A stretch of 64,000 nt of DNA from Terriglobia bacterium (GTDB lineage: Bacteria; Acidobacteriota; Terriglobia; 20CM-2-55-15): NCBI GenBank assembly GCA_965198225.1, contig CBDAOY010000008.1, forward strand, positions 224,001 through 288,000. Reading direction: 5' to 3'. Numbering within the stretch: position 1 is the stretch's first letter; each line of letters opens with the position of its first letter. Shown piece after piece: positions 7,661-44,205 of this stretch. Both the position numbers and the translations under genes were made by a program. A model generated the notes under the pieces. That model had not been told where the DNA came from. It saw nothing but the letters and a program-made list of their open reading frames with translations, and did no database searches.

Positions 7661-9295
7661 CTATCGAGGGTTCGGTTGCTTCTTGTCTTCTGGCACCTCG
7701 ATTACTCGCTTGATGGTACCGAGTATTTCCTCGTCGTCGACCTGGATGAGCTCCGGTGCACCGAACTCCCTCAGGAGGGCAACGGTCTCGGGGTGTTTCA
7801 GCGGGACGCTGCTCCGAAGGTACGGGCCATTCGCCATGTCCGTCACCGACCAACCAAGGTGGGTTCGGACATCCAACCGGGCACCCTTCTCGACGAGGTA
7901 GGAGACCAGCTCATTGTCACCTCTCCAGGCTGCGCCCATCAAAGCGGTGTAGCCGGCGGTGGTGTGCTCAGCATTCACGTCGACTCCGACCTCCTCGACC
8001 AGATACCGGGCGGTAGTGAGGAACGCGTCCGGCGCGTTGACGCTGAAGTTGCCCGTCCAGCCGACGCCGGCCGCGGCCATCAGCGGCGTCGTATTCTCGT
8101 CGGACGGAATCTGTCCGTCAGCGCCATAAGCCACCAGCAGTTTGACCGCCTCGAGGTCGGTTGACTGCGCGGCTCGCCAGAGCGGCGTCGTTCCGGCCCA
8201 TTCGACCCACCGTTGGGCGTGATGGGGCGGGTTGTACCAGGGAGTCTTGGCGATCTTGGCATTCGGGTCGGCGCCTCGGTCCAACAGCATCTTCATCAAC
8301 TCCAGATGGGTCACCTTCTGCTGGACGATGCCCGAATCGGTCGTAGACGCCGTTGGCGTCCAGGCCACCGGAGCCCATCGGCTCGCCACCACGGCGTATA
8401 GCGGTGTCAAACCCTCGATCTCGGTCGCGTTGGGATCTGCGCCGTGATCGAGTAGGTACTTTGCGATGTCGTACCGACCGTTGATCGTCGCAACGATCAG
8501 CGGCGTCGTGCGGTCCACCGGATTGATCCGATCGACGTCAGCTCCAACCTCGACCAGGGCGCGCACGGTGTCGATCAAGCCCCCGCGGGCGGCGTAATGT
8601 AAGGCAGTCATGCCACCCATACCGGTAACCCTGCCTTCACCCCGGGGTCTTGTTCGCGTGATGCCGGTCCGGGACGGGGCCGGTATCGGGTTGCCCTCCT
8701 CGTCAACGAGGTCGTTGCCGACCGGGACCATCTTGCTGATTGCGTCCAGGTCTGCGCCGCGCTTCGCCAGGAGCCGGACTACGGGTGCACGGTCCAGACC
8801 GGCCGCAAACATCAGCGCTGTCTGTTCGCGAGCCCTTTCCCGGACGTCCAGGCTCGCCCCGTTGTCGAGCAGGTGAGTCACCGCGTCCACGCTGCCCGAG
8901 GCGGCCGCCTTCATGAGGACGGTCGTTCCCAGTTCGTTCGTGGCGTTGGCATCGGCCCCGGCGTCGACCAGCATCTCGATCATGGACGCGCTCCCGTTCG
9001 TTGCCGCCAGAAAGAGCGGCACGATCGAGCCAAGGCGGGTTCCGCGCTCGACATCCGCGCCGGCGTCGAGCAGCAAGCGTGCCATCTCGAGGTTATCTTT
9101 GTGGGCGGCCCAATGCAGCGCCGTCATACCGTCGCCCTGGTCTACATTGACGTCGGCGCCCCCTTCGAGCTGGGACCGCACCGCATCGATGTCGCCCCGC
9201 ATGGCCGCGTCCGCAAGATCGGTGGCGGGGGCTGCTGCCATCACCAGCGACATACAGACCACGCAAAGCCCGACGAGTAAACTTCTTGCTAACAT
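7661..9295 (-). CDS. Secreted ankyrin-repeat protein (cassette 1)
   Basis: Signal peptide; repeated GMTALHWAA / TPL..AA / GADVN ankyrin motifs. Confidence 0.92.
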   Translation of the reverse strand: MLARSLLVGLCVVCMSLVMAAAPATDLADAAMRGDIDAVRSQLEGGADVNVDQGDGMTALHWAAHKDNLEMARLLLDAGADVERGTRLGSIVPLFLAATNGSASMIEMLVDAGADANATNELGTTVLMKAAASGSVDAVTHLLDNGASLDVRERAREQTALMFAAGLDRAPVVRLLAKRGADLDAISKMVPVGNDLVDEEGNPIPAPSRTGITRTRPRGEGRVTGMGGMTALHYAARGGLIDTVRALVEVGADVDRINPVDRTTPLIVATINGRYDIAKYLLDHGADPNATEIEGLTPLYAVVASRWAPVAWTPTASTTDSGIVQQKVTHLELMKMLLDRGADPNAKIAKTPWYNPPHHAQRWVEWAGTTPLWRAAQSTDLEAVKLLVAYGADGQIPSDENTTPLMAAAGVGWTGNFSVNAPDAFLTTARYLVEEVGVDVNAEHTTAGYTALMGAAWRGDNELVSYLVEKGARLDVRTHLGWSVTDMANGPYLRSSVPLKHPETVALLREFGAPELIQVDDEEILGTIKRVIEVPEDKKQPNPR

Positions 9296-9328
9296 GTATC
9301 TTCCCCTTGTGTTTGGACTTTCCTGGCG

Positions 9329-10708
9329 TCAGATAGAGATTTCCTCTCCGGTGCTGTCGCCGATTTCGGTTATATCAACCCCGAGCCTGTGCAGGACGGT
9401 CAGCCAGAGATTTGCCAGGGGAGTTCCTTCCTCGTTCTTGACATGGAGGTTGCCCCGGACCTGTCCGCTGGCGTGGCCGGCAAGGAATATCGGTAGCCGC
9501 AGGTGTTCGTGAACGTGGGAGTCTCCCATGGGACTGCCGTACACGACGAGAGAGTGGTCTAAGAGATTCCCGTCGCCGTCGGGGGTGTTTCTGAGCTTTT
9601 CCAGAAACGGCGCCACCCGGCTGACGTGATACTCGTTCAGCTGGGCGAACTCCGTGATCTTGTCGGGAAGGGAGCCGTGATGCGAAGCCGAATGGAACGG
9701 TGTCGTCACTCCGCTTTCCGGATAGATCGCCGAACTGACGTCCATCGCCATCTTGAAGGCCGAGACGCGGGTGGTCTCGGTCATGAAGGCCAGTGCCTGC
9801 AGATCCCACATCAGGCTCACATGTTCCTCGAACGAATCGGGCACGCCGACCGGAGCGTCCGGCAACGACCGCTCTCCGGACTGGTCGCTGTTGTACTGCT
9901 CGATCTTCTCTATCCGCCGCTCGATCTCGCGCACGTCTTCGAGATACTGACTGAGCCGGCTGCGGTCGCTCGGCGACAGATCCTTCGCGAGGCGGGTAAC
10001 CGACTGCGTGATCCGGTCCAGAACGCTGTTCTGCTCCCGGAGTCGCAACGCGCGCTCCTCGGCCGAGCCGCCGGCGCCGAACAAACGCTCGAAGACCACG
10101 CGTGGGTTTCTTTCCAGGGGCAGAGGACTTGTCGCGTCAGCCCAGCTGATCGTGTAGGAGTAGACGCAGGAATAGCCGTAGCCGCACGATCCCTTCAGCG
10201 AACCGCCGTCTTCGATGCCCAGCTGAATGGACGGCAAGGGGGTGTCCTGGCCGTGTGCTTGAGCGTAAAGCTGGTCTATCGACGGACCGCAATAGAAATC
10301 CGCACCCTCGGTCATCTTGGGCTTCGCGGCAGTCAGGAAGGTTGCGGCGGCACGCGTATGGTCGGCCCCCTCCTCCTTCAGTGAATGTGCCCTGGCGTTC
10401 TCGAGATCCGTGTTCGTGACGATCGTGAGATAGTCCTGGTACGGCTCCAGCGACTTCAACGTCGGCGTGATCTCGAAATCCGAGCCTTCCTTGGCGGGCG
10501 ACCAGAGGTTCAGCTTCTGGCCTGTTCGGGTGCTGCCACCCGCTCCATGCACGATTTCTATCGTACAGAGGCGGGATTTCGGAACCGCGGCCGTCTGACG
10601 CAATGGCGTCGCTGCCGGCGCCATTGCTTCCAGAAACGGCAACGCCACGGCAGCGCCCATGCCGCGGAGGACCGTGCGGCGGGACATGTGCTTCTTGGTG
10701 ATAAACAT
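9329..10708 (-). CDS. DUF1552 (HXXSHH) family protein with Tat-like signal (cassette 1)
   Basis: MFITKKHMSRRTVLRG..ALPFLEAM; PFHSASHHG; TPDGDGNLLD; C-terminal GDSTG. Confidence 0.9.
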   Translation of the reverse strand: MFITKKHMSRRTVLRGMGAAVALPFLEAMAPAATPLRQTAAVPKSRLCTIEIVHGAGGSTRTGQKLNLWSPAKEGSDFEITPTLKSLEPYQDYLTIVTNTDLENARAHSLKEEGADHTRAAATFLTAAKPKMTEGADFYCGPSIDQLYAQAHGQDTPLPSIQLGIEDGGSLKGSCGYGYSCVYSYTISWADATSPLPLERNPRVVFERLFGAGGSAEERALRLREQNSVLDRITQSVTRLAKDLSPSDRSRLSQYLEDVREIERRIEKIEQYNSDQSGERSLPDAPVGVPDSFEEHVSLMWDLQALAFMTETTRVSAFKMAMDVSSAIYPESGVTTPFHSASHHGSLPDKITEFAQLNEYHVSRVAPFLEKLRNTPDGDGNLLDHSLVVYGSPMGDSHVHEHLRLPIFLAGHASGQVRGNLHVKNEEGTPLANLWLTVLHRLGVDITEIGDSTGEEISI

Positions 10709-10789
10709 ACGGTGCTCCTTTTAGCTCTTGAATATGTCTACGCTCGGTTTCTGACCGATCTACAACCGGATCTAAAATGGAGGGCGCGC

Positions 10790-13270
10790 CTACGGCACCC
10801 GTCCAGCGGCGGCGTCGAGGCCAGCCGCATCTACCGTTGGTGACTCCGCTCTTTTCAACCGGAATGGCGGGCTTTCCACGATACCCATGACGATGGATGT
10901 GAACCGATAGTCGTTCCCGGCCGCTTCTCGTTCGATCTGGCGAATCACGGGCATATCGACGTGTGTGACCCCGCGGCCCAGCGCGTAGGTCGTGAGGCGG
11001 ACGATGAAATTCCTCACAATCGAACCCTCATATTTCATCAGGGCCTGGCGAAGACTGGCAGGGCCGTTCACCTTGGTGCCGTCCACCAACTCGGACGACG
11101 GATCGACGGGGTAGCCACTGTCGAGATCGCGCCAGACTCCAATGGCGTCGAAGTTCTCGAGCGCCATGCCTATCGGATCGATGATCTTGTGACACGAGGC
11201 GCACGGTTCGACCATGCGGTGCTTCTCCAGACGCTCGCGCACCGATTGCAGCCTTACGGCGTCACCCCCAACCACGTTGTTTTCCTCCAGCTCAGGGACA
11301 ACGGGGGGGGGTACTGGGGGGGGCACACCCAGAATCTGTTCCAGAACCCACTTGCCGCGCACCACCGGGGATGTCCGATTCGAGAACGACGTGACGGTCA
11401 AAATGCCGCCGTGGCCCAGGAGCCCGAAACGGTTTTCATCGGTCAGCGTCACTCGCCGGAATCTGCTTCCGAGGACGTTGGGTATCCCGTAGTGCTTCGC
11501 GAGGCGTTCATCGACGAACGTATAGTTCGCCGTCAGCAGTTCGAACACGCTGCGATCCTCGCGCATGATGTGGTCGAAGAGGAGTTCCGTTTCGCGCCTC
11601 ATCGATTCGAAGAGATTCTCGTCGGAGTCGGGATACAGGTAGACGTCGGGAAGCACGTCCCTCAGATTGCGCAAAAGCAGCCACTGCACGGCGAAATTTG
11701 TCGCCAGCGATTCGGCGCGCGGGTCAGCCAGCATGCGCCGCACCTGCTGCTCGAGCACCGCGGGGTCGGAGAGCCTTCCTTCCCCGGCGACGGAAACGAG
11801 TTCATCGTCGGGCGTCGAACTCCACAGGAAATGCGACAGCCGGGAAGCCAGCTCCAGGTCGCTGATGGGATAGGCGGCGCCCGGGGCGACACCGGCCGGC
11901 GCGCGTTCGAAGCGGAAAACAAATTCGGGGTTCGCGATGATGAACTGCACGGCCAGACGGATTCCCGAGTCGAAGTCTCCGAGCCCGCGACCGTCATAGT
12001 ATGCCGCCATCAACTCTTCGAGGTGTTCCCCCGTCAATGGCTTCCGAAACGCCTGCTGCGCCAGCGTCGTGACGATCCGACGGGCGCACGGCTCCTCCTC
12101 GTCCGGGGTCGCCGGCTGGCAGACCAGAATCTTCCGGCGGCTCGGCATGTCGCTCACACCGGTCGCATTGTGCGGACCCTCGATCACTAGATCCGCCAGG
12201 TGCACCAGCGTTGTCACTCCAAAAGCCTGGCCGAGGAAATCATCTCTCAAGCTGCGTTCCGGCTGGTGCATGAAGTCGTCGATGGGACCGTCGGCCTTCG
12301 TGATGAACGAAGCTGTGACCCTTTGCGGTCCCGCCTCCACTCGAACCGGGTCCGTTCGAAAGTCGTTTTCACCGGCCAGCAGCAGCGGGTCGATGTCAAA
12401 CAGCCCGACCCTCTCGCCGTTAACGGTCACCTCGAGTTGCTCGCCCTCGCCGGTGCTCCCGAACAGAAACGTGTTTCTCGTGAAGTAGAGTGACATCCTG
12501 AAGACATATTCCGCGTCGGCCGGGAAGTTGTGCACGATGGCCATGCCTCCGCGCGTCCCGAATGGCGTGCCTTCAATGTGACGAAGCTGGGAAAAGGTCG
12601 TTGGGATTTTGTACGGCTCGACAGTGGACGACATCTCGGCATCGCCGATTGCAAGACGGCTGATCTTCCCGGCCGCTCGGACGTATGATTCCATCAGCGT
12701 CGGGTTCGATGTCAGGACATCCGCGATGTTGTCGAAGCCGTATGTCATGTTGTCGGCCGGCAGGAGCGATTCCACGTCGATGTCCAGTTCGAGAAGGTCG
12801 CGGATGGAGTTGCTGTATTCGGTTCGGTTGAGCCGATAAAGGGCCGGCCGGCCGGGGTTCGGTTCGGCCAGGGCAACTCGGTCGATGTTCCCTTCGAGTG
12901 CGTCAACGAAGGACTGGACGGTGTCCCACTCCGGCCGCGGCATTCCGGCCGGGGGCATCATGCCTCCTCGCAGCTTGAGAATGATCTCTTCGGCCAGCTC
13001 TGCGTTCTGGTCGGGATGCGACAGGTCAATGTCGGAGAGTGAGAAATCTCCCGTTCGCAGGTCGTCGTCGTGGCAGGAGCCGCAATACTGTTCGGCAAAT
13101 CCCCGTTGTGATTCCACCGACATCGTTCCGGCTGCTTGAGATGCCGTAGTCATCCCCGATGGACTGGTTGCCGTCGGGACGCCATTCACCGTGGCGAACG
13201 TCATCGACGTTTGTGCCAGCACCAGAGCTGCCAATAAGACCAAACCACCGAGAATCCAAACTCTCTTCAT
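10790..13270 (-). CDS. PSD/PSCyt (DUF1587/1595/1592/1588/1585) di-heme cytochrome c domain protein (cassette 1)
   Basis: CGSCH..GMMPP; RLNRTEYSNSIRDLL; ELASRLSHFLWSS; TSPVVRGKWVL; CASCH; YALGR. Confidence 0.9.
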   Translation of the reverse strand: MKRVWILGGLVLLAALVLAQTSMTFATVNGVPTATSPSGMTTASQAAGTMSVESQRGFAEQYCGSCHDDDLRTGDFSLSDIDLSHPDQNAELAEEIILKLRGGMMPPAGMPRPEWDTVQSFVDALEGNIDRVALAEPNPGRPALYRLNRTEYSNSIRDLLELDIDVESLLPADNMTYGFDNIADVLTSNPTLMESYVRAAGKISRLAIGDAEMSSTVEPYKIPTTFSQLRHIEGTPFGTRGGMAIVHNFPADAEYVFRMSLYFTRNTFLFGSTGEGEQLEVTVNGERVGLFDIDPLLLAGENDFRTDPVRVEAGPQRVTASFITKADGPIDDFMHQPERSLRDDFLGQAFGVTTLVHLADLVIEGPHNATGVSDMPSRRKILVCQPATPDEEEPCARRIVTTLAQQAFRKPLTGEHLEELMAAYYDGRGLGDFDSGIRLAVQFIIANPEFVFRFERAPAGVAPGAAYPISDLELASRLSHFLWSSTPDDELVSVAGEGRLSDPAVLEQQVRRMLADPRAESLATNFAVQWLLLRNLRDVLPDVYLYPDSDENLFESMRRETELLFDHIMREDRSVFELLTANYTFVDERLAKHYGIPNVLGSRFRRVTLTDENRFGLLGHGGILTVTSFSNRTSPVVRGKWVLEQILGVPPPVPPPVVPELEENNVVGGDAVRLQSVRERLEKHRMVEPCASCHKIIDPIGMALENFDAIGVWRDLDSGYPVDPSSELVDGTKVNGPASLRQALMKYEGSIVRNFIVRLTTYALGRGVTHVDMPVIRQIEREAAGNDYRFTSIVMGIVESPPFRLKRAESPTVDAAGLDAAAGRVP

Positions 13271-16660: not shown

Positions 16661-16928
16661 GTATCACTCCTTTCTGCCGACGGTTGGATGAGAGACGGGC
16701 GCTGGGCGACGCGACGGCAGGTCAAGGTCGTTTCAGCGCTTCGGAAAAGGTCGGATGATTCTAGCAGCACATGAATGCCCAGTCGAGAATCAGCAAGCGG
16801 CGGGTGTCAGGGATAGCGACGGCGTTGCCGGTTTCGTCGTTTCACCATCGCCGTCTTCTCCCGATCGGCCAGCTACACAAGCTTCGTGTTCGACGATCCG
16901 AGATAATTTGCTATATTTCCCAGATCGC

Positions 16929-21825: not shown

Positions 21826-21866
21826 GGCCCTTAACGGGAAAGAGAGAATTCAGGAGGAGACCGAAC

Positions 21867-33167: not shown

Positions 33168-33190
33168 ATGTCGTTTCTCCTCGGAGGCCC

Positions 33191-34623: not shown

Positions 34624-37149
34624 CTAAGGGCTGGGAACGGCCTCCTGTCTCCGCTTCCCGGCGTCGGGACCCACGTCAGCCGCGGGGGCGGAATTCGTGG
34701 CTAAGGGCTCCACCTTTCTCATTTGGAACGGCATGCTGTTCACGATGCCCATAACGATTGACGTGAACCGGCTATCGTTCCGGGCGGCCTGCCGTCCGAT
34801 CTCGCGAACCACCGGCATGTCGATGTACGTGAATTCACGGCCTAAAGCATAAGTCACCAGCTTTACGATGAAGTTCCGGACATACGCATCAGAGTACTTC
34901 AACAGCGCCTGCCGCAGGTCGGCCGGGTTATTCACTTTGGTTCCGTCAACCAACTCACTCCCCGACTCTACAGGGAAGCCACTGTCGTGGGTGCGCCATG
35001 CCCCGATCGCGTCAAAGTTCTCCAGCGCCAGGCCTATCGGATCCATGATTTTATGGCAGGAGGCGCACGGTTCCCTCGTGCGGTGCTGTTCCAGACGGTC
35101 GCGCACCGATCGAAGCCTGAGCGGTTCACCGCCTCTACCCAAGGTGTTCTCCTCCAGGAGCGGTACGTTGGGAGGAGGTATCGGAGCAGTCACGCCCAGA
35201 ATCTCCTCCAGGATCCACTTGCCACGCACCACCGGGGAGGTCCGGTTGGAGAACGAGGTTACCGACAGAATGCTCCCCTGGCCCAACAGTCCCAAACGGC
35301 TCTCATCCTGTAGCTTCACGCGCCGGAATCTATTCCCCAGGACATTCGGAATTCCGTAGTGTTTCGCCAGACGCTCATTAACAAACGTGTAGTCCGCCGT
35401 CAGCAGATCGACAACACTTCGGTTCTCGCGCACGATGCTGTCGAAGAGCAACTCCGTCTCCCTTCGCATCGATTCGAGCAAGTTCTGGTCCGCGTCCGCA
35501 TACAGGTAAACATCGGGGAGCAATTCCCTGAGATTGCGCAAGTGCAGCCACTGTCCCGCAAAGTTTTTAGCCAGTGCTTCTGAGCGAGGGTCGGCCAGCA
35601 TGCGGCGCACCTGCTGCTCGAGTACCGCCGGATCCTTGAGTTTTTCCTGGCTGGCCAGGGTGATGAGTTGGTCGTCGGGGAGGCTGCTCCACAGGAAAAA
35701 CGCCAAGCGGGAAGCCAGCTCCAGGTCACTGATGCGATAGTTCGCACCCGCGACGGCATTGGTGGGTGTGCGCTCCACACGGAATACGAATTCGGGGTTC
35801 GCAATGATGAACTGCAAGGCCATTCGGATCCCCGTGTCGAAATCCGCCTGGTTGGCTCCTTCCTGGTAAGCGCTCATCAGCTCCTCGACATTCTCATCCG
35901 TCAACGGCCGCCGAAACGCATGCCGTGCCAGCGTTGTGATGATGTCGGCAGCGCAAGGCCCCTCTTCGCCCGCCGTGGCGGGCCGGCAGGTGAATATCTT
36001 GCGGCGGCTGGGCGTCTCGCTCACCCCTGTTGCGCTGTAGGGACCCATGATCGTGAGGTCTCTCAGGTGGGGAGGGTTTGTCAGCCCCTCGACCTGGCCC
36101 GAAAAATCATCGGCCAGGCTCCGCTCCGGCCGCCAGATGGGGTCTTCGATCGGGCCGTCGGCAAGGTCCACAAACGAGGCCGAGATTTTCTGCGGACCTG
36201 CCTTCACCCGGATCGGCGGCGTCCGCAGGTCGTTTTCGCCCGCTGTCATCAAGGGGTTGATGTCGAACAGCGCAACCCTCTCGCCGTTCACGGCCACCTC
36301 GAGTTGCTCGCCGTACATGGTGCTGCCGAAGAGGAAAGTGTTTCTCGTGAAGACCAGCAGCATTCGGAACACGTACTCGCCATCGGCCGGGAAGTTATGC
36401 ACTACGGCGATTCCGCCGCGCGTGCCGAACGGCGTACCCTCGACGTGACGTATCTGCGAGAAATTCGTTCCGAGACGGTATGTCTCCTCGATGGGGCTCA
36501 TCCGAGGGTCGCCAACAGCGAGACGACCGATCTTGCCGGCCGCTTGGACGTACGCCTCCAGCAGCGTGGGCGAAATGGCCAGGACCTCTGAAATGTTGTC
36601 GAAACCCTGGCTCCTCGTGTCGGCCGGCAGAAGCGACTCCGAGTCGACCTCCAGGTCAAGCAAGTCGCGGATCGCGTTGGCATATTCGGTTCGGTTGAGC
36701 CGGTGGAGGTACGGCGTTCCTGGATTCGGAGTAGAGGCGGCAGCGCGGTCGATCTCGGCTTCCAACGCCCGGGCAAAGGCCCTGACCGTCTCTTGGGTCG
36801 GCCGCGGCGAGCCCGCGGGAGGCATCATGCCCGTCCGCAGCTTGAGGATGATCCTTTCGGCCACCTGAGCGTTCAGCTCCGGATGCGCCAGGTCAACGTC
36901 TGAAAACGAGAAGCCTCCCGTTCGCACGTCATCGTCATGGCAGTATTCGCAGTACTGTCCGGCTAACTTCTGCCGCTCTTCTACCGGCATCGTGCCGGGC
37001 GTCTCAGGCTCTTGCAGGATCGCACCCGGCACAGGCGCGACCCGGAGCCCGCCCAACGCCTGAGCCAATGCGGGTACCGGGCTCAAGGCTTGCCCCATGG
37101 TCAACGCCGCTACAATCACCAAAAAACCGGGAAGGACAACTCTCTTCAT
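34624..37149 (-). CDS. PSD/DUF1592-family di-heme protein (cassette 3)
   Basis: CEYCH..GMMPP; CASCH; collinear with other copies. Confidence 0.9.
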   Translation of the reverse strand: MKRVVLPGFLVIVAALTMGQALSPVPALAQALGGLRVAPVPGAILQEPETPGTMPVEERQKLAGQYCEYCHDDDVRTGGFSFSDVDLAHPELNAQVAERIILKLRTGMMPPAGSPRPTQETVRAFARALEAEIDRAAASTPNPGTPYLHRLNRTEYANAIRDLLDLEVDSESLLPADTRSQGFDNISEVLAISPTLLEAYVQAAGKIGRLAVGDPRMSPIEETYRLGTNFSQIRHVEGTPFGTRGGIAVVHNFPADGEYVFRMLLVFTRNTFLFGSTMYGEQLEVAVNGERVALFDINPLMTAGENDLRTPPIRVKAGPQKISASFVDLADGPIEDPIWRPERSLADDFSGQVEGLTNPPHLRDLTIMGPYSATGVSETPSRRKIFTCRPATAGEEGPCAADIITTLARHAFRRPLTDENVEELMSAYQEGANQADFDTGIRMALQFIIANPEFVFRVERTPTNAVAGANYRISDLELASRLAFFLWSSLPDDQLITLASQEKLKDPAVLEQQVRRMLADPRSEALAKNFAGQWLHLRNLRELLPDVYLYADADQNLLESMRRETELLFDSIVRENRSVVDLLTADYTFVNERLAKHYGIPNVLGNRFRRVKLQDESRLGLLGQGSILSVTSFSNRTSPVVRGKWILEEILGVTAPIPPPNVPLLEENTLGRGGEPLRLRSVRDRLEQHRTREPCASCHKIMDPIGLALENFDAIGAWRTHDSGFPVESGSELVDGTKVNNPADLRQALLKYSDAYVRNFIVKLVTYALGREFTYIDMPVVREIGRQAARNDSRFTSIVMGIVNSMPFQMRKVEPLATNSAPAADVGPDAGKRRQEAVPSP

Positions 37150-37481
37150 TAACGTTTCTCCCGCTGAGGGTAATGCCTGGTGCCTGGACTATCGAGGCCC
37201 CTCGAGTCCCGCCCGCCACCGCAAACAGGCGGCCCCGGTTCGTTCAGTGAAGAACCGAACGCTGCGCGAAAAATCTGGCCGATGAATAAGCTTCCGCAAT
37301 TATAGGTAGCAGGGGATTGAACCGCCAACAAAATGAGGACGTTCTACGACGGCGCGCTCATGCGGTCCCGGACTTCTGATGCCCGAGACTCGGAATGCCG
37401 AAGCGGAATCGCATGGATGGGTTCGGATGTGCGTGCCTCCCGGCGGGGACACTCCGACGCCTGGAGACCGGGGCGTTTCTA

Positions 37482-38291
37482 CTATTGCCTGCCCGGTTTA
37501 CCCCCACGGGTGCGGCGCGCATAGAGGGGACTGTACTCCAGCCCGTAGGGCGACTTGCGCCTCAGTCGGGCTTTCTCGGTAAAGAATTCCTCCTTCTGGT
37601 CTCGGATCTCTTCCAACTCCTCTTCGGTGCAATCGCGGAGAGTGGTCTCCTCTCGTGGGATGAAGAAAACCTGTCCGACAGGCAGGCTGTGCGTCCCGGG
37701 AAGCCCCTCCCCCGGTTCCAGGACGTAACGGAACTCGCTTTCGTGCGGGAACCAGTCGGTCTCGACCCGGATGACCAGCATTGGAGCGACCGGTCGCTCG
37801 ATCATGTTGAAGACGGGGGCGTAAATGGTGTCCCAGCCCTGCGGGGTCCGGAAGTTGGTCGCTCCGCGCAGCGTGACTGCGCCGGGCGGGGTCCCCAGGT
37901 CTTCCGGAACGATATAGGATCGCGCCATCGCGACGGCGTTCTCCCGGTTTATTGGAGGGTCTTTGATCAGAAACTCGACCTCTTCCTGCATCTTCCCGAT
38001 GCTTCCCACCGGAAGGACGAGCGTGAGCGCGAAGACCGCCTCCCACTTTCCTCCTCCAGGCGGGCGCACGAAATACAGGAACCTGTAACGTCCCTCTCCC
38101 TGGTACTCGACGTGGAACGATTCGTTGTCCTCGAGCGGGGGATAGACCAGGTATCCGAGTGAGCTCCCGGCCTCGAGCACGGGGCAGTGGCGGGCATGCT
38201 GTGGCAACAGAGGCCGCTGCGGTTCGCGACGCGGCTTCAAGCCCACGCCGGGGCGGTACGAGTTGGGGAATAGCTTTACTTCCATGCGCAT
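37482..38291 (-). CDS. Hypothetical protein, DUF6065-like
   Basis: HCPVLEAGSSLGY and RVETDWFP..PVGQVFFIPR resemble recalled DUF6065 motifs. Confidence 0.5.
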   Translation of the reverse strand: MRMEVKLFPNSYRPGVGLKPRREPQRPLLPQHARHCPVLEAGSSLGYLVYPPLEDNESFHVEYQGEGRYRFLYFVRPPGGGKWEAVFALTLVLPVGSIGKMQEEVEFLIKDPPINRENAVAMARSYIVPEDLGTPPGAVTLRGATNFRTPQGWDTIYAPVFNMIERPVAPMLVIRVETDWFPHESEFRYVLEPGEGLPGTHSLPVGQVFFIPREETTLRDCTEEELEEIRDQKEEFFTEKARLRRKSPYGLEYSPLYARRTRGGKPGRQ

Positions 38292-38298
38292 ATATTAG

Positions 38299-38355
38299 CA
38301 GCCCGTGGCAGAACTCTACAGGGCCGCGTTACGGCCAAACGGGGCCGGATTCTAG
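38299..38355. mobile_element. Truncated left arm of a palindromic element (60956-type), interrupted at its internal CTAG
   Basis: CAGCCCGTGGCAGAA..GCGTTACGGC..GCCGGATTCTAG parallels the left part of 60956-61224. Confidence 0.65.
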
Positions 38356-38622
38356 TGACCTGTAACAATGCTATCGGTACCAGCGTTCGGCGGAACGGCG
38401 TCGGATTTTAGGAGTGACGCCCGAGCCAATGCTGTTTCATTGCGAGGACGTCACGACACCGAAGACGGCGCCGTTGGGCCGAACCCTTCGGGCCGATGGG
38501 GGTTGCGGGCGATCTCTTTGTCGGAAGCCGTCACCGATGAAAGAGCATCGCTTTCCGTCTCCCTCCGCGACCTCGCCCGCAAGACCCATCGGCGATGGTG
38601 CCGATAGCACTGTTACAGGCCA
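38356..38622. mobile_element. MITE-like palindromic element, copy E1 (267 bp)
   Basis: Terminal inverted repeats TGACCTGTAACAATGCTATCGGTACCA / TGGTGCCGATAGCACTGTTACAGGCCA; flanks CTAG and CTTG. Confidence 0.8.
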
Positions 38623-38805
38623 CTTGGGATAGATCAAGCATGCCGGTGACTGCACGACTGACTCTCTCGGCGAAGGTTGGTCGTGCACTGAATCGCGATG
38701 TTTTCGGGGATTCAACTGGCCGGGCAGACAATATCTTTCCCAGAACGCCTTCATGTGCTATCGTTCTGTAACCAAACAACATAGGCATAATAAACAGGGG
38801 GCTCG

Positions 38806-41202
38806 ATGAAGTCGGTTTCCGTTTGGGTTGGAGTGCTTGGCGTGCTGGTTGTGTCCGCCGGAAGTGCCTGGGGGCAAACCCCGAGCACAATGCCGGTTTC
38901 ATCGCAGCAGGCGCTGGTCAACGACTACTGCTCGGGTTGCCACAACGACGCGATTCGTGAAGGTGGGTTTTCATGGGCCACGATCGACCTGGCCGATCCC
39001 GCCCGGAACGCGGAACAAGCCGAAAAGGTGATTCGCAAATTGCGGGCAGGCATGATGCCGCCGGCGGGCGCAACACGACCGGCGGTCGCTGACGCGAAGG
39101 CGCTTGCACTGTCGATTGAAACCGCGATCGATCGATCCGCTTCGGAGTACCCGTTTGCCGGCGCTCCCGAACTCCATCGGCTCAATCGAACAGAATACCG
39201 TAACTCGGTGCGCGAGTTGCTCGACTTGGATGTGGATGTTTCTTCGATGCTTCCGACCGACCAGATGAGCGGCGGCTTCGACAACATCTCCGACGTGCTC
39301 GCTGTGACTCCGGCGCTGGTGCAGGGATACGTCCGGGCGGCAGGCAAGATCAGCCGGCTGGCGATCGGTGACCCTGAAGTGGCCCCGACCATGTCGATGT
39401 ACACCGTGCCGAAGGTCGTCAACCAGCTGCGGCACGTCATGGGCACGCCGCTGGGAACGCGGGGCGGAACCTCCGTAGTCTACAACTTCCCCGCCGACGG
39501 CGATTACACGTTCAAGGTAGCCTTCTACCACGACTTCATCACCGAGCTGTTTGGCGCCAATCTGCCCGAGAACCTCCAGGGCCAGGAACTGGAGATCTCC
39601 CTAGACGGGGCCAGGGTGGCCATCTTCGAACTCGATCCAGAACTCTCCGAACCCGAAGGCACGTTGACGACAGAGTCGGTCCGGATCACGGCGGGCGCGC
39701 ATCGCGTTGCGGCCGCATTCATCTCGAAGTTCGACGGGCCGACCGAGGATGAGTTCCGCCAGGTGGAGCAGTCGATGATTGACGTCACCGGCGCGGTGCC
39801 CGGCCTAGTCGCCCTGCCACACCTGCACACACTGACTATTGCCGGCCCGTTCGTCGTGACAGGAATGTCGGAGACGGCATCCCGTCAGAAGATATTCCGG
39901 TGCAGGCCCGCGTCGGCCGACGCGGAACTGGACTGCGCGAAGAACATCCTGGGGACTCTGGCACGGCAGGCATACCGCCGGCCGATCTCGAACACCGACG
40001 TGGACTACCTGATCAACCACTACGGGGCCGGACGTGAAGAGGGAGACTTCGAGGCCGGGATCCAGATGGGCGTGCAGGCGATCCTCGGGCATCCGGAGTT
40101 TGTCTTCCGATTCGAGAAGACGCCGTCAAACGTCGGGCCAGGGACGAACTACCAGATCAGCGACCTGGAGCTGGCGTCCCGCATGGCGTATTTCCTCTGG
40201 AGCAGCCTGCCCGACGAGGAATTGCTGTCGCTGGCATCGGAGGGAAGGCTCGCCGAGCCCGGGGTGGTGGAACAGCAGGTCCGCCGCATGCTGGTGGATC
40301 CGCGCTCGGCTGCGCTGTCGGACAATTTCGCGTTCCAGTGGTTGCGCCTCCAGACGGTAAAGGAGGCCCAGCCCGAGGCGCTCGTGTTCCCGGAATTCAC
40401 GAGGAACCTCGGCGAGTCGATGACCGAAGAAACGAAGCTGCTCTTCGATAGCATCATGCGCGAAGACCGCAGCGTGATCGACCTGCTGACGGCGGACTAC
40501 ACGTTCGTCGACGAGGTGCTCGCGAAACACTACGGCATCCCGAACGTGCTGGGAAGCCGGTTCAGGCGCGTTGGGGTGACCGACCAGAACCGTTTCGGTC
40601 TGCTTGGACACGGAAGCGTCCTGACGTTGACGTCGCTGGCGAACAGAACGTCTCCCGTCCAGCGGGGCAAGTACGTCATGGAGGTCCTGATCGGATCGCC
40701 CCCGCCTGCGCCGCCCCCGGTCGTTCCCCCCTTGAAGGAGGCGGTGGATAACGAGGTCGTCCTCTCTGTCAGAGAGCGGATGATCCGGCACCGGGAAAAC
40801 CCCGCCTGCTCGGCATGTCACCAGATGATGGATCCGATCGGTCTGACTCTGGAGAACTTCGACGCGATCGGCCGGTGGCGTGCGAACGACAGCGGGTCTC
40901 GCATCGACCCGTCGGCCGAGATGTACGACGGGACGCCGCTCGACGGACCCGCCAGCCTGCGCGAGGCAGTCCTCGCTCGCTCCGAAGCGTTCATCGGAAC
41001 CTTTACGGAGCATCTTCTTTCATATGGTCTGGGCCGCGTGCTCAGTTATCGGGACATGCCCACGGTCCGGTCGATCGCCCGCGAGGCCGCGCAGAACGAC
41101 AAACGTTTTTCGTCGTTCATCCTCGGCGTCGTGAAGAGCGTGCCGTTCCGCTTGAGGCTCGCCGACGAAGAATACACGGCAGATCAGTTGAGAAACCGGT
41201 AA
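38806..41202 (+). CDS. PSD/DUF1592-family di-heme protein (cassette 4)
   Basis: CSGCH..GMMPP; CSACH; collinear, most divergent copy. Confidence 0.9.
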   Translation: MKSVSVWVGVLGVLVVSAGSAWGQTPSTMPVSSQQALVNDYCSGCHNDAIREGGFSWATIDLADPARNAEQAEKVIRKLRAGMMPPAGATRPAVADAKALALSIETAIDRSASEYPFAGAPELHRLNRTEYRNSVRELLDLDVDVSSMLPTDQMSGGFDNISDVLAVTPALVQGYVRAAGKISRLAIGDPEVAPTMSMYTVPKVVNQLRHVMGTPLGTRGGTSVVYNFPADGDYTFKVAFYHDFITELFGANLPENLQGQELEISLDGARVAIFELDPELSEPEGTLTTESVRITAGAHRVAAAFISKFDGPTEDEFRQVEQSMIDVTGAVPGLVALPHLHTLTIAGPFVVTGMSETASRQKIFRCRPASADAELDCAKNILGTLARQAYRRPISNTDVDYLINHYGAGREEGDFEAGIQMGVQAILGHPEFVFRFEKTPSNVGPGTNYQISDLELASRMAYFLWSSLPDEELLSLASEGRLAEPGVVEQQVRRMLVDPRSAALSDNFAFQWLRLQTVKEAQPEALVFPEFTRNLGESMTEETKLLFDSIMREDRSVIDLLTADYTFVDEVLAKHYGIPNVLGSRFRRVGVTDQNRFGLLGHGSVLTLTSLANRTSPVQRGKYVMEVLIGSPPPAPPPVVPPLKEAVDNEVVLSVRERMIRHRENPACSACHQMMDPIGLTLENFDAIGRWRANDSGSRIDPSAEMYDGTPLDGPASLREAVLARSEAFIGTFTEHLLSYGLGRVLSYRDMPTVRSIAREAAQNDKRFSSFILGVVKSVPFRLRLADEEYTADQLRNR

Positions 41203-41217
41203 GGAGAGGAAACATCC

Positions 41218-42588
41218 ATGTTCATCACGAAGAAACACCTATCCCGACGCACCTTCCTGACGGGTGTGGGCGCGACCGTTGCGCTGCCGTTTCTCGAGTC
41301 GATGGTGCCTGCGCAGACGCCACAACGTCTGACCGCAGCCAACCCTCGAACTCGCCTGGCGTGCCTGGAAATGGTACACGGCAGCGCCGGCAGTACGCAG
41401 TACGGGATCGAGCACAACTACTGGATGCCGCCGACCGAAGGCGCCGATTTCGAGTTCGGATACATCCTGGAGCCGCTCGAGAGCTTCCGGGACTACATCA
41501 CGCTGGTCACCCAGACCGACCAGCGCCCGGCCGAAGCGTGGACGGCGGAGGAAGAAGGGGCCGACCACTTCCGTTCCAGCGCCGTGTTCCTGACGGCCGC
41601 TCACCCGAAGCAGACCGAGGGGTCCGATGTCCGGGCAGGGACGTCGATCGATCAGATCTATGCGAACCGGTTCGGTCAGGACACGCCGCTCCCCTCGATT
41701 CAGCTGTGCATCGAGAACGTGGATGCGACGGGTAACTGCGGGTACCACTACAGCTGTGTTTACATGAACTCGATCAGCTGGTCGTCGCCCGAGACCCCGC
41801 TGCCGATGACCATCGACCCGCGAATGGCGTTCGAAGATCTGTTCGGCGCCGGCGGCTCACCCGAGGCGCGGGCGGCCCGGCGACGCGCCAACCAGAGCAT
41901 CCTCGATGGCGTTACGCTCGAAGTGGCGCGGCTCCGGAAAGATCTGGGGCGGCGCGATCAGAACAGGCTGAACGACTACCTGGAGAGCGTCCGCGAGATC
42001 GAGCGGCGCATCGAAAAGATCGAGCAATACAACGCCAGCGGTGCGGAGCGGGAGCTGCCGTCGGCGCCGATCGGCGTGCCCGATTCCTGGGAAGAGCACG
42101 TCAAGATCATGTTCGACTTGCAGGTCCTCGCGTTCTCTGCGGAAGTGACGCGCGTTTCGTCGCACAAGCTCAGCCGGGACGTGAGCAATCGCGTGTTCGA
42201 AGCGAGCGGGAACAAGACGCCGTTCCATTCGGCATCGCACCATGGGTCGACGCCGAAGGGGATCGAGGATTACACGAAGATCAACCGCTACCACATCGAC
42301 CTGTTCGGGTATTTCCTCGACAAGCTCCGGAACACTCCAGATGGAGACGGGAACCTCCTGGATCATTCCATGGTCCTGTACGGCAGCCCGATGGGCGATT
42401 CCAACGTGCACGCGCACAAGCGAGTGCCGATGTTGCTGGTCGGCCATGCCAATGGTCAGCTCAAAGGGAATTGGCATGTCCGCGCACCGGATGAGACCCC
42501 GACCGCCAACGTGCTGCTCGCCTTGCTGCACAAGCTGGGGATCGAACAGGACATCATCGGCGACAGTACGGGAGTCTTGTCGATATAG
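41218..42588 (+). CDS. DUF1552 (HXXSHH) protein (cassette 4)
   Basis: SRRTFL, CGYHYSCVY, FHSASHHG. Confidence 0.9.
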   Translation: MFITKKHLSRRTFLTGVGATVALPFLESMVPAQTPQRLTAANPRTRLACLEMVHGSAGSTQYGIEHNYWMPPTEGADFEFGYILEPLESFRDYITLVTQTDQRPAEAWTAEEEGADHFRSSAVFLTAAHPKQTEGSDVRAGTSIDQIYANRFGQDTPLPSIQLCIENVDATGNCGYHYSCVYMNSISWSSPETPLPMTIDPRMAFEDLFGAGGSPEARAARRRANQSILDGVTLEVARLRKDLGRRDQNRLNDYLESVREIERRIEKIEQYNASGAERELPSAPIGVPDSWEEHVKIMFDLQVLAFSAEVTRVSSHKLSRDVSNRVFEASGNKTPFHSASHHGSTPKGIEDYTKINRYHIDLFGYFLDKLRNTPDGDGNLLDHSMVLYGSPMGDSNVHAHKRVPMLLVGHANGQLKGNWHVRAPDETPTANVLLALLHKLGIEQDIIGDSTGVLSI

Positions 42589-42639
42589 AACCGACCGTTG
42601 AAACAGGTTTAAGAGAAGCGTTAGTTAAAGGAAGAGACA

Positions 42640-44205
42640 ATGAAAACACTCGGACTAAGCTTACTTGCTCTACTCGTCGCGACCACGGCGATCGTTGCCG
42701 CGGCCAACGAGACCGAACTCGTCGAAGCCGCGATGCGCGGGGACACGGCTGAGGTACGCTCGTTGCTGGACGCCGGGGCCGACGTCAATGCGGTTTACGG
42801 TGACGGCAGCACGGCACTGCATTGGGCTGCCGGCAACGGTGATCTGGAACTGAGCCGCCTGCTGCTCGATGCTGGCGCCAGGGTCGATGCCGTCACACGG
42901 ATCGGATCGATGACCCCGCTGTTCATGGCGGCCAGGAGCGGGGAGGCTGGCGTGATCGAGACACTGCTGGAGGCAGGTGCGAGCGCGGACGAGGCCAACG
43001 ACAACGGGACGACGGTCTTGATGAGTGCGGCGGCTTCCGGAAACGTCGAAGCGGTTCGGGCGCTCATCGAAGCCGGTGCGGATGTCAATGCCACCGAGGA
43101 GACCAACGGTCAGACTGCGTTGATGTTTGCGGCCACCCTCAACCGTGCGGAAGCGATCCAGGCTCTGATCTCCAACGGCGCGGACACGGGCGTAATGACG
43201 AAGGTTTCCAAGCTACCGAACCGTGGCCGAGGCGGGCGGCGGTCCGGTCCGGCCGTCGTCGGCGGGATGACGGCATTGCACTTCGCGTGCCGGGACGGAC
43301 AGATGGATGCCGTCCGCGAACTCGTGGCCGGCGGAGCCGACATCAACGCAGTCACGGAGTCGAAACAGACCCCTCCGATCACGGAAGCCATCCTCAATGC
43401 CAATCTCGACATCGCCAAGTTCCTGCTCGGCAACGGCGCCGATGTGAACATTCCGAACGGCGACGGTCTGCTGCCGCTTTTTGCCACCTTGGACATCCAG
43501 TGGAGGCAAAACACCTGGTATCCGCAGCCGAACGTGTCGGAAGAGAGGACCAGTTATCTGGATCTCATGGAGGAAATCCTGGCCCATGGTGCCGACGTGA
43601 ATGCCCGGTTGGGAAAGAGGCTGTGGTACCGGACTTTTCGCTACAGCGGGGGCTGGATCGATCCGGCCGGCTCAACTGCCCTCTGGCGTGCAGCAGAGGC
43701 GAACGATGTGGACGCGATGCGTCTGCTCGCCTCCCACGGCGCCAATCCGACGATTCCGACTGCCCAGGGCACGACTCCCCTGATGGTCGCAGCAGGTTAC
43801 GGCTTCACGTGGCAGGCGACCAACATCAAGCCGGATTCGCGAATCGACGCCCTCAGGCACCTGGTTGAAGAGCTCGGCGCCGACGTCAATGGTAAGGACC
43901 TGCAGGATTACACGGCCTTGCACGGAGCTGCCTACGTGGGCGACGACGACGCCATCATGTACCTGGTGGCCAGAGGCGCCGACGTCGGCGCGCGGGCGAG
44001 TGCCCGCCTCGGGTCCCGGGCCCCGACCCCTGTCGAGCCTGGTACCGGAGACACGGTAACCGACTTTGCGAACGGTCCCCACGAGAAGTCCCTGTTGTTC
44101 CCGGACACGGTCCGGCTGCTGGAGTATCTCGGCTCGGAAAACTCCCACGACTGCCGGTCGACGGGGTGCGTGAACAACACGAAGGAGGATCGGCCACGTC
44201 GTTAG
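42640..44205 (+). CDS. Secreted ankyrin-repeat protein (cassette 4)
   Basis: Signal peptide, ankyrin repeats, VTDFANGP tail. Confidence 0.92.
   Translation: MKTLGLSLLALLVATTAIVAAANETELVEAAMRGDTAEVRSLLDAGADVNAVYGDGSTALHWAAGNGDLELSRLLLDAGARVDAVTRIGSMTPLFMAARSGEAGVIETLLEAGASADEANDNGTTVLMSAAASGNVEAVRALIEAGADVNATEETNGQTALMFAATLNRAEAIQALISNGADTGVMTKVSKLPNRGRGGRRSGPAVVGGMTALHFACRDGQMDAVRELVAGGADINAVTESKQTPPITEAILNANLDIAKFLLGNGADVNIPNGDGLLPLFATLDIQWRQNTWYPQPNVSEERTSYLDLMEEILAHGADVNARLGKRLWYRTFRYSGGWIDPAGSTALWRAAEANDVDAMRLLASHGANPTIPTAQGTTPLMVAAGYGFTWQATNIKPDSRIDALRHLVEELGADVNGKDLQDYTALHGAAYVGDDDAIMYLVARGADVGARASARLGSRAPTPVEPGTGDTVTDFANGPHEKSLLFPDTVRLLEYLGSENSHDCRSTGCVNNTKEDRPRR

Follow-up and report, generated by a model that had tools for sequence, protein, structure and literature searches.

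Four copies of a dihaem PSD/PSCyt3–DUF1552–ankyrin cassette in a Terriglobia genome: a possible periplasmic metalloenzyme module

The window analysed here, a 64 000-nucleotide stretch of DNA from a Terriglobia bacterium, carries the same three-gene operon four times. ORF calling placed a dihaem cytochrome gene (gene 1), a DUF1552 gene (gene 2) and an ankyrin gene (gene 3) in constant order. In cassette A, on the minus strand, gene 1 (10790–13270) encodes an 826-residue dihaem PSD/PSCyt3 (DUF1592-type) protein with a signal peptide, assigned by Pfam and its CxxCH motifs; gene 2 (9329–10708) encodes a 459-residue DUF1552/HXXSHH protein with an SRRT twin-arginine leader (Pfam E 3.6e-83; HSASHH at residue 339); and gene 3 (7661–9295) encodes a 544-residue secreted ankyrin-repeat protein, identified by Ank_2 (E 4e-65) and alignment. 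Pfam and motif searches gave the same three products, in the order of genes 1, 2 and 3, for cassette B on the plus strand (17929–20370, 20446–21825 and 21867–23501), cassette C on the minus strand (34624–37149, 33191–34570 and 31521–33194, the last also by alignment) and cassette D on the plus strand (38806–41202, 41218–42588 and 42640–44205). The longest ORF of gene 1 in cassette B runs from GTG 17854, whereas its signal peptide starts at ATG 17929, the position given in an earlier sequence-only reading of this DNA. In cassette C the true start of gene 3 is probably the second Met (33167), because it lines up with the starts of the other copies. The gaps between genes 2 and 3 are 33, 41 and 51 nt, or in cassette C −4 or 23 nt. 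None of the cassettes contains an internal stop, and amino-acid identity between copies is 52–66% for gene 1, 59–76% for gene 2 and 45–63% for gene 3, cassette D being the most divergent; the earlier description of four intact, diverged cassettes in the same order is thus borne out at 45–76% identity. The same reading had three cassettes ending in a terminator, and terminator-like hairpins indeed follow cassettes A (7599–7623, minus strand; a 10-pair stem, then TTTTTTT), B (23529–23555, plus strand; a 12-pair stem, then TTTTTTT; a two-way element that is also listed on the minus strand) and D (44225–44256, plus strand; −25.3 kcal/mol, z −3.67), with no canonical terminator found after cassette C in the terminator scan of the window. 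The hairpin of cassette D was missed by the pattern scan, and none of 200 shuffles folds as well.

The large subunit encoded by gene 1 is built from PSCyt and PSD domains, which were reportedly first named by Studholme and co-workers in 2004. In all four copies PSD4/DUF1592 (E ~1e-46), PSCyt3/DUF1588, PSD3/DUF1587, PSD2/DUF1585 and PSD5/DUF1595 score above the Pfam cut-offs. Their order, PSD3-PSD5-PSD4-PSCyt3-PSD2, fits the 'group III' PSCyt3/PSD architecture that is defined in Text S1 of He et al. (2017; PMC5615132). In each of the four proteins there are six cysteines and exactly two copies of the CxxCH motif; the cassette A protein has the motifs at residues 63 and 690. Across 75 large-subunit sequences C63, C66, H67, C690, C693, H694 and M105-P106 are invariant, and the combination of CxxCH with a conserved axial-ligand candidate marks gene 1, by motif, as a c-type cytochrome with predicted haem attachment. 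The N-terminal cytochrome domain scores under the Pfam cut-offs (Cytochrome_CBB3 17–24 bits versus 27; PSCyt1 17.6–17.8 versus 22). An AlphaFold2 model of the cassette A protein (pLDDT 86.9) suggests an N-terminal cytochrome-c-like domain, a CBM-like beta-sandwich and PSD helical domains. In a fold search, the stretch of residues ~216–371 gave matches to the CBM35 and CBM36 families and to the carbohydrate-binding domain of BcsB, with TM-scores of 0.49–0.65 that refer to small targets. The whole chain has no solved global counterpart in this search, the beta-sandwich alone being matched, and a sequence search of the PDB with the DUF1592 profile gave nothing meaningful.

All four gene 2 products match HXXSHH/DUF1552 (PF07586) at E 1e-82 to 1e-85 (278–287 bits versus a cut-off of 30), and all carry the HSASHH motif and an S-R-R-T-[VF]-L leader, from which export by the Tat route is predicted. 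With the Pfam TAT_signal model, the proteins of cassettes A–C stay under the cut-off and that of D gives no match. Among 92 DUF1552 sequences R11, D145, Q146, D231, D248, E263, H339 and H343 are invariant, and R10, H117, H344 and H400 are kept in 90% or more of them. The AlphaFold2 model of the cassette A protein (pLDDT 89.1) has a long helical hairpin inserted at residues 229–309. Foldseek returned 82 PDB matches at E<=1e-3 for this model; S1 sulfatases, LtaS/LtaP and alkaline phosphatase stand on top, at E 3e-5 to 4e-4 and probability ~1.0 with low TM-scores of 0.3–0.4. The core is therefore modelled, from these matches, as a putative alkaline-phosphatase/sulfatase-type alpha/beta fold, which sharpens the 'HXXSHH metal-binding catalytic subunit' proposed earlier. 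None of the 92 sequences matches the sulfatase or other alkaline-phosphatase-clan Pfam models at E<=1, none has a Pfam link to DUF1501, and a PDB sequence search with the DUF1552 profile found no match. By eye, a candidate helix reads G/A-x-H117-x-R119...L-T-G/A, so that what we take to be the position of the sulfatase Cys/Ser nucleophile (C-x-P-x-R) reads G/A-x-H-x-R.

The four gene 3 products match Ank_2 with 194–236 bits and have multiple repeats above the Pfam cut-off; Pfam, NCBIfam and the alignment revealed no other domains. NCBIfam models of Legionella Dot/Icm ankyrin effectors score no higher than 110.8 bits, where the cut-off is 600; these are generic repeat matches only. Pfam thus confirmed the earlier assignment of the three products to the PSD/PSCyt3, DUF1552 and ankyrin families, and the leaders ascribed to them, a Sec-type signal on the two-CxxCH large subunit, a twin-arginine leader on DUF1552 and a signal peptide on the ankyrin protein, are present in four of four copies, the signals of genes 1 and 3 being judged by eye from the N-termini rather than by a predictor. 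These leaders point to a periplasmic location and lend support to the periplasmic module proposed before.

Several genes beside the cassettes are possible accessory genes. A monohaem cytochrome c gene (16755–17747, plus strand), with one CxxCH and a Cytochrome_CBB3 match below the Pfam cut-off, immediately precedes cassette B and shares its strand; homologues adjoin cassettes in 7 of 79 loci, a raw count with no background rate. Convergent with cassette B is a gene for a seven-CxxCH cytochrome with TPR repeats (23884–25764, minus strand), homologues of which occur at loci L001, L056 and L079, with fragments at L058. Two tandem VOC/glyoxalase-fold genes with twin-arginine leaders (44273–46146, plus strand; Pfam) lie directly downstream of cassette D, and their homologues stand beside cassettes at L064 and L067. 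Such cytochrome and VOC neighbours are present in a minority of loci only. CarboxypepD_reg-type TonB-dependent barrels occur in the window at 2046–5336 and 25880–28963 (Pfam), make up 9 of the 68 flanking ORFs scanned and have BLAST matches in 16 of 79 loci; their association with the cassettes is present, yet not separable from background.

A survey of relatives, almost all of them Acidobacteriota MAGs, addressed whether the ankyrin gene accompanies the pair elsewhere. Both partners adjoin DUF1552 in 70 of 80 testable DUF1552 genes, or 68 of 78 after de-duplication, which removes non-conservation of the ankyrin gene as a ground for refuting the earlier proposal. One Terriglobia chromosome supplies 13 copies among the best 80 loci. 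The congruent subunit phylogenies that had been anticipated were also obtained: the three trees have 33–37 of 52 splits in common versus ~0.2 in shuffles, the nearest relatives are identical for all three subunits, and the identity matrices correlate (r 0.85–0.89). The trees indicate that inheritance and duplication have involved all three genes together. Such congruence is expected from physical linkage alone and does not show binding. The families had been described as uncharacterised and expanded in Planctomycetes and similar phyla; the first part stands, whereas the pair is not confined to those phyla, and the subfamily seen here is mainly acidobacterial. Beyond the triads, an orphan DUF1552 clade of nine loci lacks both partners, which fits DUF1552 as the self-sufficient core. 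Among more distant, plasmid-borne DUF1592–DUF1552 pairs the ankyrin gene is present in one of six, and at L079 an MBL-fold gene takes its place; since it is absent from five of the six and replaced at L079, the ankyrin gene is not essential to the pair. In one distant pair, on plasmid pMSHV of Sphingobium herbicidovorans, genes annotated as cytochrome c, cytochrome b and SDR follow. The residues E51/H54 (family consensus Y/N) were considered as a clade-specific, ankyrin-linked change; this idea was dropped because the orphan clade carries them too.

The two-gene core has been noted before. In He et al. (2017; PMC5615132) a PSCyt3 gene beside a DUF1552 gene is recorded in Planctomycetes and Verrucomicrobia and nothing is said to be known of the function of the pair; the word ankyrin is absent from the supplement. 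The pair of He et al. and the cassettes in the window are alike in Pfam architecture, in PSCyt3–DUF1552 adjacency and in high copy number per genome. Nevertheless, the cassettes add a fixed downstream secreted ankyrin gene, and their subfamily is mainly acidobacterial. Our literature searches found neither a paper on the function of these families nor a description of the ankyrin triad, and NCBIfam has no name for the cassette proteins; together with the PDB sequence searches, this agrees with the earlier view that no characterised homologue explains the system. From the gene neighbourhoods, the ankyrin gene is a conserved third partner of an already known pair. A comparable arrangement is the DUF1501 + PSCyt1/PSCyt2/PSD1 module of the PVC superphylum, in which a twin-arginine protein likewise lies beside a signal-peptide-bearing multidomain CxxCH protein, with many paralogues. 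According to the accessible part of Kamneva et al. (2012; PMC3542564), this module often contains carbohydrate-binding domains and the authors guess at electron transport; both partners belong to Pfam families other than those of the cassettes, and that part mentions no ankyrin partner.

Taking these results together, we tentatively regard each cassette as an operon for three exported proteins that may work as one periplasmic module, and, going by anatomy and context, we would provisionally favour a metalloenzyme of the periplasm that is coupled to c-type cytochromes and has a cognate ankyrin protein as adaptor. DUF1552 would be the catalytic metalloenzyme, folding and loading its metal in the cytoplasm before Tat export. 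The beta-sandwich of the dihaem protein would hold the substrate, which probably derives from a glycan or another polymer, and the same protein would connect the catalytic centre to the pool of periplasmic cytochrome c. Binding only its cognate partners, the ankyrin protein would assemble the pair or keep it stable, comparable to AnkB for the catalase KatB, and the many paralogues would be substrate-specialised variants. Weighing against this reading are the low TM-scores to sulfatases, the lack of any alkaline-phosphatase-clan Pfam match among the 92 sequences, the sub-threshold scores of the N-terminal cytochrome domain, the ankyrin gene's absence from most distant pairs and the small share of loci with cytochrome or VOC neighbours. 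A precedent for the division of export routes is offered by SorAB sulfite dehydrogenase and flavocytochrome c sulfide dehydrogenase, in which a Tat-exported catalytic subunit works with a Sec-exported cytochrome c. The split of routes and the dedicated c-type cytochrome as electron partner are as in the cassettes, a functional analogy only: the catalytic subunits of SorAB-type dehydrogenases hold a molybdenum cofactor or flavin, whereas DUF1552 has a predicted alkaline-phosphatase-type fold and no known redox cofactor. For the large subunit, Cbp2D of Cellvibrio japonicus likewise combines DUF1587/PSD3 and c-type cytochrome domains with a carbohydrate-binding module. The available text of Branch et al. 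(2021; PMC8981238) describes it as CBM2, a YceI-like X158, cytochrome c domains and DUF1587, and reports that the X183 cytochrome domain can reduce LPMOs. Cbp2D is secreted and differs from the large subunit in overall architecture, and a DUF1552 or ankyrin partner is not mentioned in that text.

The fold of DUF1552 also suggests another function, in which a non-redox periplasmic hydrolase or transferase acts on esters or transfers groups of imported or envelope polymers, with the large protein positioning the substrate and its haems being structural or regulatory. To our knowledge, the characterised enzymes of the alkaline-phosphatase superfamily are hydrolases or transferases and not redox enzymes, and we know of no member paired with a cytochrome. 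All the fold matches of DUF1552 (sulfatases, LtaS and alkaline phosphatase) are of this kind, the cytochrome partner bears the CBM-like domain, and associations of PSCyt genes with sulfatases and carbohydrate binding are reported by He et al. (PMC5615132). We nevertheless consider it unlikely. Structural or regulatory haems sit poorly with two CxxCH motifs and a Met-Pro motif kept invariant throughout the 75 sequences, and with cytochrome c and cytochrome b genes neighbouring several loci. Also against it are the lack of any sulfatase Pfam match among the 92 sequences and, by eye, G/A-x-H-x-R at the presumed place of Cys/Ser-x-P-x-R. The TM-scores of only 0.3–0.4 and the hairpin at 229–309 are further differences between DUF1552 and the sulfatases.

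The role of the ankyrin protein is a separate question. Few ankyrin proteins of the periplasm are linked to one particular enzyme. In the KatB–AnkB systems of Pseudomonas aeruginosa and Myxococcus, the gene for a signal-peptide-bearing ankyrin protein likewise directly follows that of a haem enzyme, with which it is co-regulated. AnkB is required for KatB activity according to PMC12754779, citing Howell (2000). The partner there is a catalase, unlike in the cassettes, and a Pfam scan of 27 non-cassette ORFs in the window found no catalase gene; the likeness is one of description. AnkB is also much shorter than the cassette ankyrin proteins. Instead of being a subunit or assembly factor, the ankyrin protein could do a job of its own (target binding, inhibition or protection) or serve as a specificity element that brings in a macromolecular substrate. 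Ankyrin repeats are generic protein-binding scaffolds, this protein diverges fastest of the three (mean pairwise identity 0.47 versus 0.53 and 0.62), and its gene is dispensable in the distant pairs and replaced at L079. Against this stand its tight adjacency with short gaps to gene 2, a tree that tracks those of its neighbours (35–37 of 52 splits in common) and nearest relatives that are the same as theirs, and a separate role seems doubtful to us. A complex prediction for mature DUF1552 (31–459) and the mature ankyrin protein (22–544), run without controls and with the large subunit left out, gave ipSAE values of 0.01 and 0.03 versus a mark of 0.32, which weigh neither way on binding.

DUF1552–ankyrin fusions were considered as interaction evidence and set aside. 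Sixteen longer proteins were checked, twelve of them singletons; four DUF1552–ankyrin forms were read fully and twelve were motif-scanned. Two of the four (P0272 and P0273) retain the signal peptide of the ankyrin protein mid-chain, and three (P0273, P0278 and P0281) contain stretches rich in Arg that look like frameshifts. Of the twelve, four (P0271, P0275, P0280 and P0284) retain an internal Tat leader and the other eight are uninformative. The examined forms are taken as assembly or gene-calling artefacts, and therefore none is usable as evidence of a real fusion.

That the module is no enzyme but a periplasmic device for redox or ligand sensing or trafficking, tied to import across the outer membrane and taking cargo from the CarboxypepD_reg-type barrels that occur in the window and around other loci, is highly improbable, because the barrel frequency is about that expected from their high copy number in Acidobacteriota (a rough estimate with no control) and because the Tat leader of DUF1552, like its conserved His, Asp and Glu residues, suggests an enzyme that carries a cofactor.

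Extending the metalloenzyme reading further, the triads might be an acidobacterial counterpart of polysaccharide-utilisation loci that relies on a new kind of chemistry. In it, an alkaline-phosphatase-fold protein would have become a redox metalloenzyme, a dihaem CBM-bearing cytochrome would supply or withdraw its electrons, and an ankyrin solenoid would set pairing or specificity. Each genome would have dozens of such copies, specialised by substrate, for the periplasmic oxidation or reduction of polymer fragments that have been imported. We regard this as rather improbable; if true, it would give a first function to PSCyt/DUF1552 modules and, by analogy, to the PSCyt/DUF1501 modules of Planctomycetes, Verrucomicrobia and Acidobacteriota. 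A redox enzyme of any such kind would bear on organic-matter processing by Acidobacteriota in soil. The conserved secreted ankyrin partner, the fold assignment of DUF1552 and the CBM-like domain in the cytochrome provide experimental starting points. In several abundant soil and water phyla, the gene families without an assigned function that have expanded most include the PSCyt/PSD cytochromes and the DUF1552 or DUF1501 proteins encoded beside them, and the DUF1552 family comprises 14,552 cluster representatives at E<=1e-3. As a lead only, the nearest named look-alike of DUF1552 in a protein atlas is DUF1501, with a score of 0.82.

The four cassettes (A, B, C and D), each composed of a large dihaem PSD/PSCyt3 (DUF1592-type) gene, a DUF1552/HXXSHH gene and a gene for an ankyrin protein, were recovered in the ORF table as four groups of three ORFs in the same orientation, at 13270–7661 (A, minus strand), 17929–23501 (B, plus strand), 37149–31521 (C, minus strand) and 38806–44205 (D, plus strand). 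The sequence-only reading had placed them at these coordinates, and every testable point of its description holds. Cassettes A and B are divergent, as are C and D. The first and second genes are separated by 81, 75, 53 and 15 nt in A, B, C and D, respectively, and the second and third by 33, 41 and 51 nt, except in cassette C, where they overlap by 4 nt; starting C3 at its second methionine, as the alignment suggests, turns this overlap into a gap of 23 nt. The Pfam families are identical in all four cassettes. In the large protein a weak match to cytochrome c precedes PSD3/DUF1587, PSD5/DUF1595, PSD4/DUF1592, PSCyt3/DUF1588 and PSD2/DUF1585; the second protein is HXXSHH/DUF1552 (E values of 1e-82 to 1e-85) and the third has ankyrin repeats and no other Pfam domain. 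Exactly two CxxCH motifs occur in each large protein and an HSASHH motif with an SRRT[VF]L leader in every DUF1552 protein of the window, while the first and third proteins begin with basic–hydrophobic–small leaders, judged by eye to be putative signal peptides. Terminator-like hairpins follow A, B and D, and the hairpin scan found none 3' of C. Since the copies are 45–76% identical, they are old paralogues rather than a recent repeat. The four cassettes are a genuine feature, not a product of chance.

Related loci were collected with a DUF1552 alignment scanned against one genome per species, which gave 545 confirmed relatives; the best 80, a sample leaning to close relatives (47–82% identity), fall in 79 loci. 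By record title, 76 of these belong to Acidobacteriota metagenome-assembled genomes (Terriglobia, Bryobacterales and Vicinamibacteria) and the other three are labelled Pseudomonadota or Planctomycetota. HMMs built for each subunit from the four window copies were run over all ORFs of the 79 loci, in which 80 of the 87 DUF1552 genes were testable, having 600 nt or more on either side. Among these best-80 loci, 70 of the 80 testable genes lie in complete triads, with the large subunit directly 5' and the ankyrin gene directly 3', one has the large subunit only and nine have neither partner. With duplicates from overlapping loci removed, the figures become 68, one and nine of 78, and the ankyrin gene is thereby conserved beside the pair in related genomes. 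Cassettes often occur in tandem; 13 of the DUF1552 genes collected come from a single Terriglobia chromosome, and 12 of these lie in triads. More distant DUF1552 genes were present in 16 records of a plasmid collection. A DUF1592-type gene lies 5' in all six loci inspected, but an ankyrin gene lies 3' in only one, from Novosphingobium, which is also the closest (42% identity). The ankyrin position is occupied by a DUF1080/3-keto-disaccharide-hydrolase gene in Planctomyces pPL62-3 and by an opposite-strand gene in the Chondrinema locus, which has no ankyrin gene there; the genes 3' of the Sphingobium herbicidovorans pair are annotated as cytochrome c, cytochrome b and SDR, and two further Sphingomonadaceae loci showed no ankyrin-like ORF. 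Thus, the ankyrin gene is fixed in one subfamily and is not a general companion of the pair.

Two other arrangements were seen among the related loci. One is an orphan DUF1552 clade (L029–L035, L040, L041 and L044; match at about 7001–8390 in each), with about 52% identity to the copies in the window and neither a DUF1592 nor an ankyrin gene adjoining. Its flanks, in the loci scanned, carry genes for a two-component system and a MacB/FtsX permease; L032, L041 and L044 also have, a few kilobases off, a gene for a sulfite-oxidase-like molybdoenzyme. In a Bryobacteraceae locus (L079:8364–12657), a 553-residue metallo-β-lactamase-domain protein takes the ankyrin position, followed by a multihaem TPR cytochrome; the surroundings of cassette B likewise include an MBL-fold gene (15734–16660) and a TPR cytochrome gene (23884–25764). 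Apparent DUF1592–DUF1552 and DUF1552–ankyrin fusions (P0271–P0286) also occur in public protein sets derived from metagenome-assembled genomes. We rejected them as real fusions because several of the forms inspected still have a leader peptide inside the chain or show frameshift-like stretches; the inspected forms look like indel or gene-calling artefacts.

Co-inheritance was assessed with 51 unique complete triads and the four window copies. Between subunits, the matrices of pairwise identity are correlated (r = 0.85–0.89), and the three genes have matching nearest relatives: L001, the locus carrying the orthologue of cassette A, is 80, 82 and 80% identical to it, and the closest loci to cassette D are L038, L026 and L048, in the same order for all three genes. 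FastTree subunit trees have 33–37 of 52 splits in common, whereas 200 shuffles of the labels gave about 0.2 on average and never more than 4; the congruent phylogenies that the sequence-only reading had put forward as a check were thus obtained. These common splits and matching nearest relatives show that each cassette is duplicated and passed on as one piece and that the paralogues are older than the species.

A literature search over openly available text returned no function for the DUF1592–DUF1552 pair and no ankyrin triad. Papers that mention DUF1552 or DUF1592 include PMC5615132, PMC6004670, PMC7789669 and PMC2754498, and the text searched of PMC3174227 and PMC3827258 contained nothing relevant. 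He et al. (2017; PMC5615132) had already noted the adjacency of PSCyt3-type and DUF1552 genes and stated that nothing was known of their function; the word 'ankyrin' was not found in their supplement. Three further papers describe a sister DUF1501 and PSCyt1/2/PSD1 module, for which electron transport was guessed (Kamneva et al., 2012; PMC3542564), Cbp2D, which also has DUF1587 and of which one cytochrome domain can reduce LPMOs (Branch et al., 2021; PMC8981238), and AnkB, an ankyrin protein cited as required for KatB activity (PMC12754779). The ankyrin triad is a new three-gene form of a known, functionally uncharacterised two-gene module.

The DUF1552 structure was predicted from a 92-sequence alignment taken from 14,552 representatives (pLDDT 89.1, pTM 0.88; residue numbers here are those of the cassette A proteins). 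Foldseek returned 82 PDB matches at E ≤ 1e-3, those listed being nearly all S1 sulfatases, plus LtaS/LtaP and alkaline phosphatase, with probabilities of about 1.0 and TM scores of only 0.3–0.4. We read the model as a predicted alkaline-phosphatase-superfamily core into which a large helical hairpin (229–309) has been inserted. Profile searches against PDB sequences and Pfam searches with the 92 sequences gave no relationship to sulfatases or alkaline phosphatases, and the nearest family in a protein atlas was DUF1501 (score 0.82), no more than a lead. Asp145, Gln146, Asp231, Asp248, Glu263, His339 and His343 are invariant across the 92 sequences, and His117, His344 and His400 nearly so. The large-subunit model (pLDDT 86.9) had no global match in the fold search and no PDB sequence relative in the profile search. 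Its Pfam-free region, at about 216–371, is a predicted β-sandwich, with fold matches to CBM35, CBM36 and the carbohydrate-binding domain of BcsB; both CxxCH motifs, Met105-Pro106 and the pair Cys384/Cys395 are invariant in 75 sequences.

The sequence-only reading, which proposed a three-subunit periplasmic redox complex, is plausible and partly supported: its family assignments hold, as do the exported leaders, the ankyrin conservation and the congruent trees, while the complex itself and its redox function are putative. With three proteins exported according to their leaders, two haem motifs, a CBM-like domain, inheritance as a unit, and a sulfatase-type predicted fold with a conserved His/Asp/Glu set, our leading, though tentative, reading is that DUF1552 would be a Tat-exported metalloenzyme, that the dihaem protein would bind substrate and couple the enzyme to the cytochrome pool, and that the ankyrin protein would serve its cognate partners as adaptor or stabiliser. 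A plain hydrolase that has a binding partner would share this fold, and redox chemistry is not a known activity of the alkaline-phosphatase superfamily; the redox link, for its part, is supported by neighbouring genes, including the Sphingobium cytochromes c and b. Homologues of the cytochrome c encoded at 16755 adjoin cassettes in seven of the 79 loci, a raw count and a minority; five are co-directional with the cassette, adjoining or one gene off, and those in L006 and L008 lie on the opposite strand. The seven-haem TPR protein likewise has homologues in L001, L056 and L079, and homologous fragments in L058. It is because these redox neighbours are raw-count minorities, and the superfamily lacks known redox chemistry, that the metalloenzyme–electron link reading is held so cautiously. 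The ankyrin protein could instead have an independent or substrate-recruiting role. It descends with its partners, but owing to gene adjacency congruent trees alone do not prove binding. The least likely alternative is a sensing or trafficking device, against which the Tat leader and the conserved His/Asp/Glu residues of DUF1552 count.

Elsewhere in the window, Pfam identified CarboxypepD_reg-type outer-membrane barrels, MacB/FtsX permeases accompanied by a PadR regulator, two molybdoenzymes resembling sulfite oxidase and a TPR-repeat cytochrome with seven CxxCH motifs. A monohaem cytochrome c gene lies immediately 5' of cassette B and two twin-arginine VOC-fold genes immediately 3' of cassette D. 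This content and the G+C of 58–65% fit an acidobacterial genome, with which the related loci agree. The molybdoenzyme genes are near opposite ends (562–1758 and 61225–62532), and the former shares 86% identity with a gene from the matching neighbourhood of L001. An IS4-family transposase gene (47569–48729; DDE_Tnp_1 and DUF4372) interrupts a minus-strand MacB/FtsX-type permease gene within 46662–49394, leaving an N-terminal MacB_PCD part (49394–48660) and a C-terminal FtsX part (47429–46662); the element spans 47430–48748, with 20-nt inverted repeats (47430–47449 and 48729–48748) that are 90% complementary. The 1.65 kb divergent spacer between C and D (37150–38805) contains only overlapping opposite-strand ORFs (37395–38162, plus; 37482–38291, minus), the former without a Pfam or NCBIfam match or a relative among the 79 loci. 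A 377-residue ORF (6405–7538), convergent with cassette A, matches no Pfam or NCBIfam family; a 41%-identical relative lies just 3' of the orthologous L001 cassette (10134–11084, minus strand), and weaker relatives occur near cassettes in L018, L050, L069 and L072. The VOC/glyoxalase-fold genes 3' of cassette D (44273–46146) are tandem, two-domain and equipped with twin-arginine leaders, and they may encode periplasmic extradiol-dioxygenase-like enzymes. In two other genomes, homologues (48–65% identity) directly adjoin cassettes, beside a cytochrome c gene, at L064:2963–3829 and L067:10144–11103, and a VOC gene is also found near the distant Sphingobium pair.
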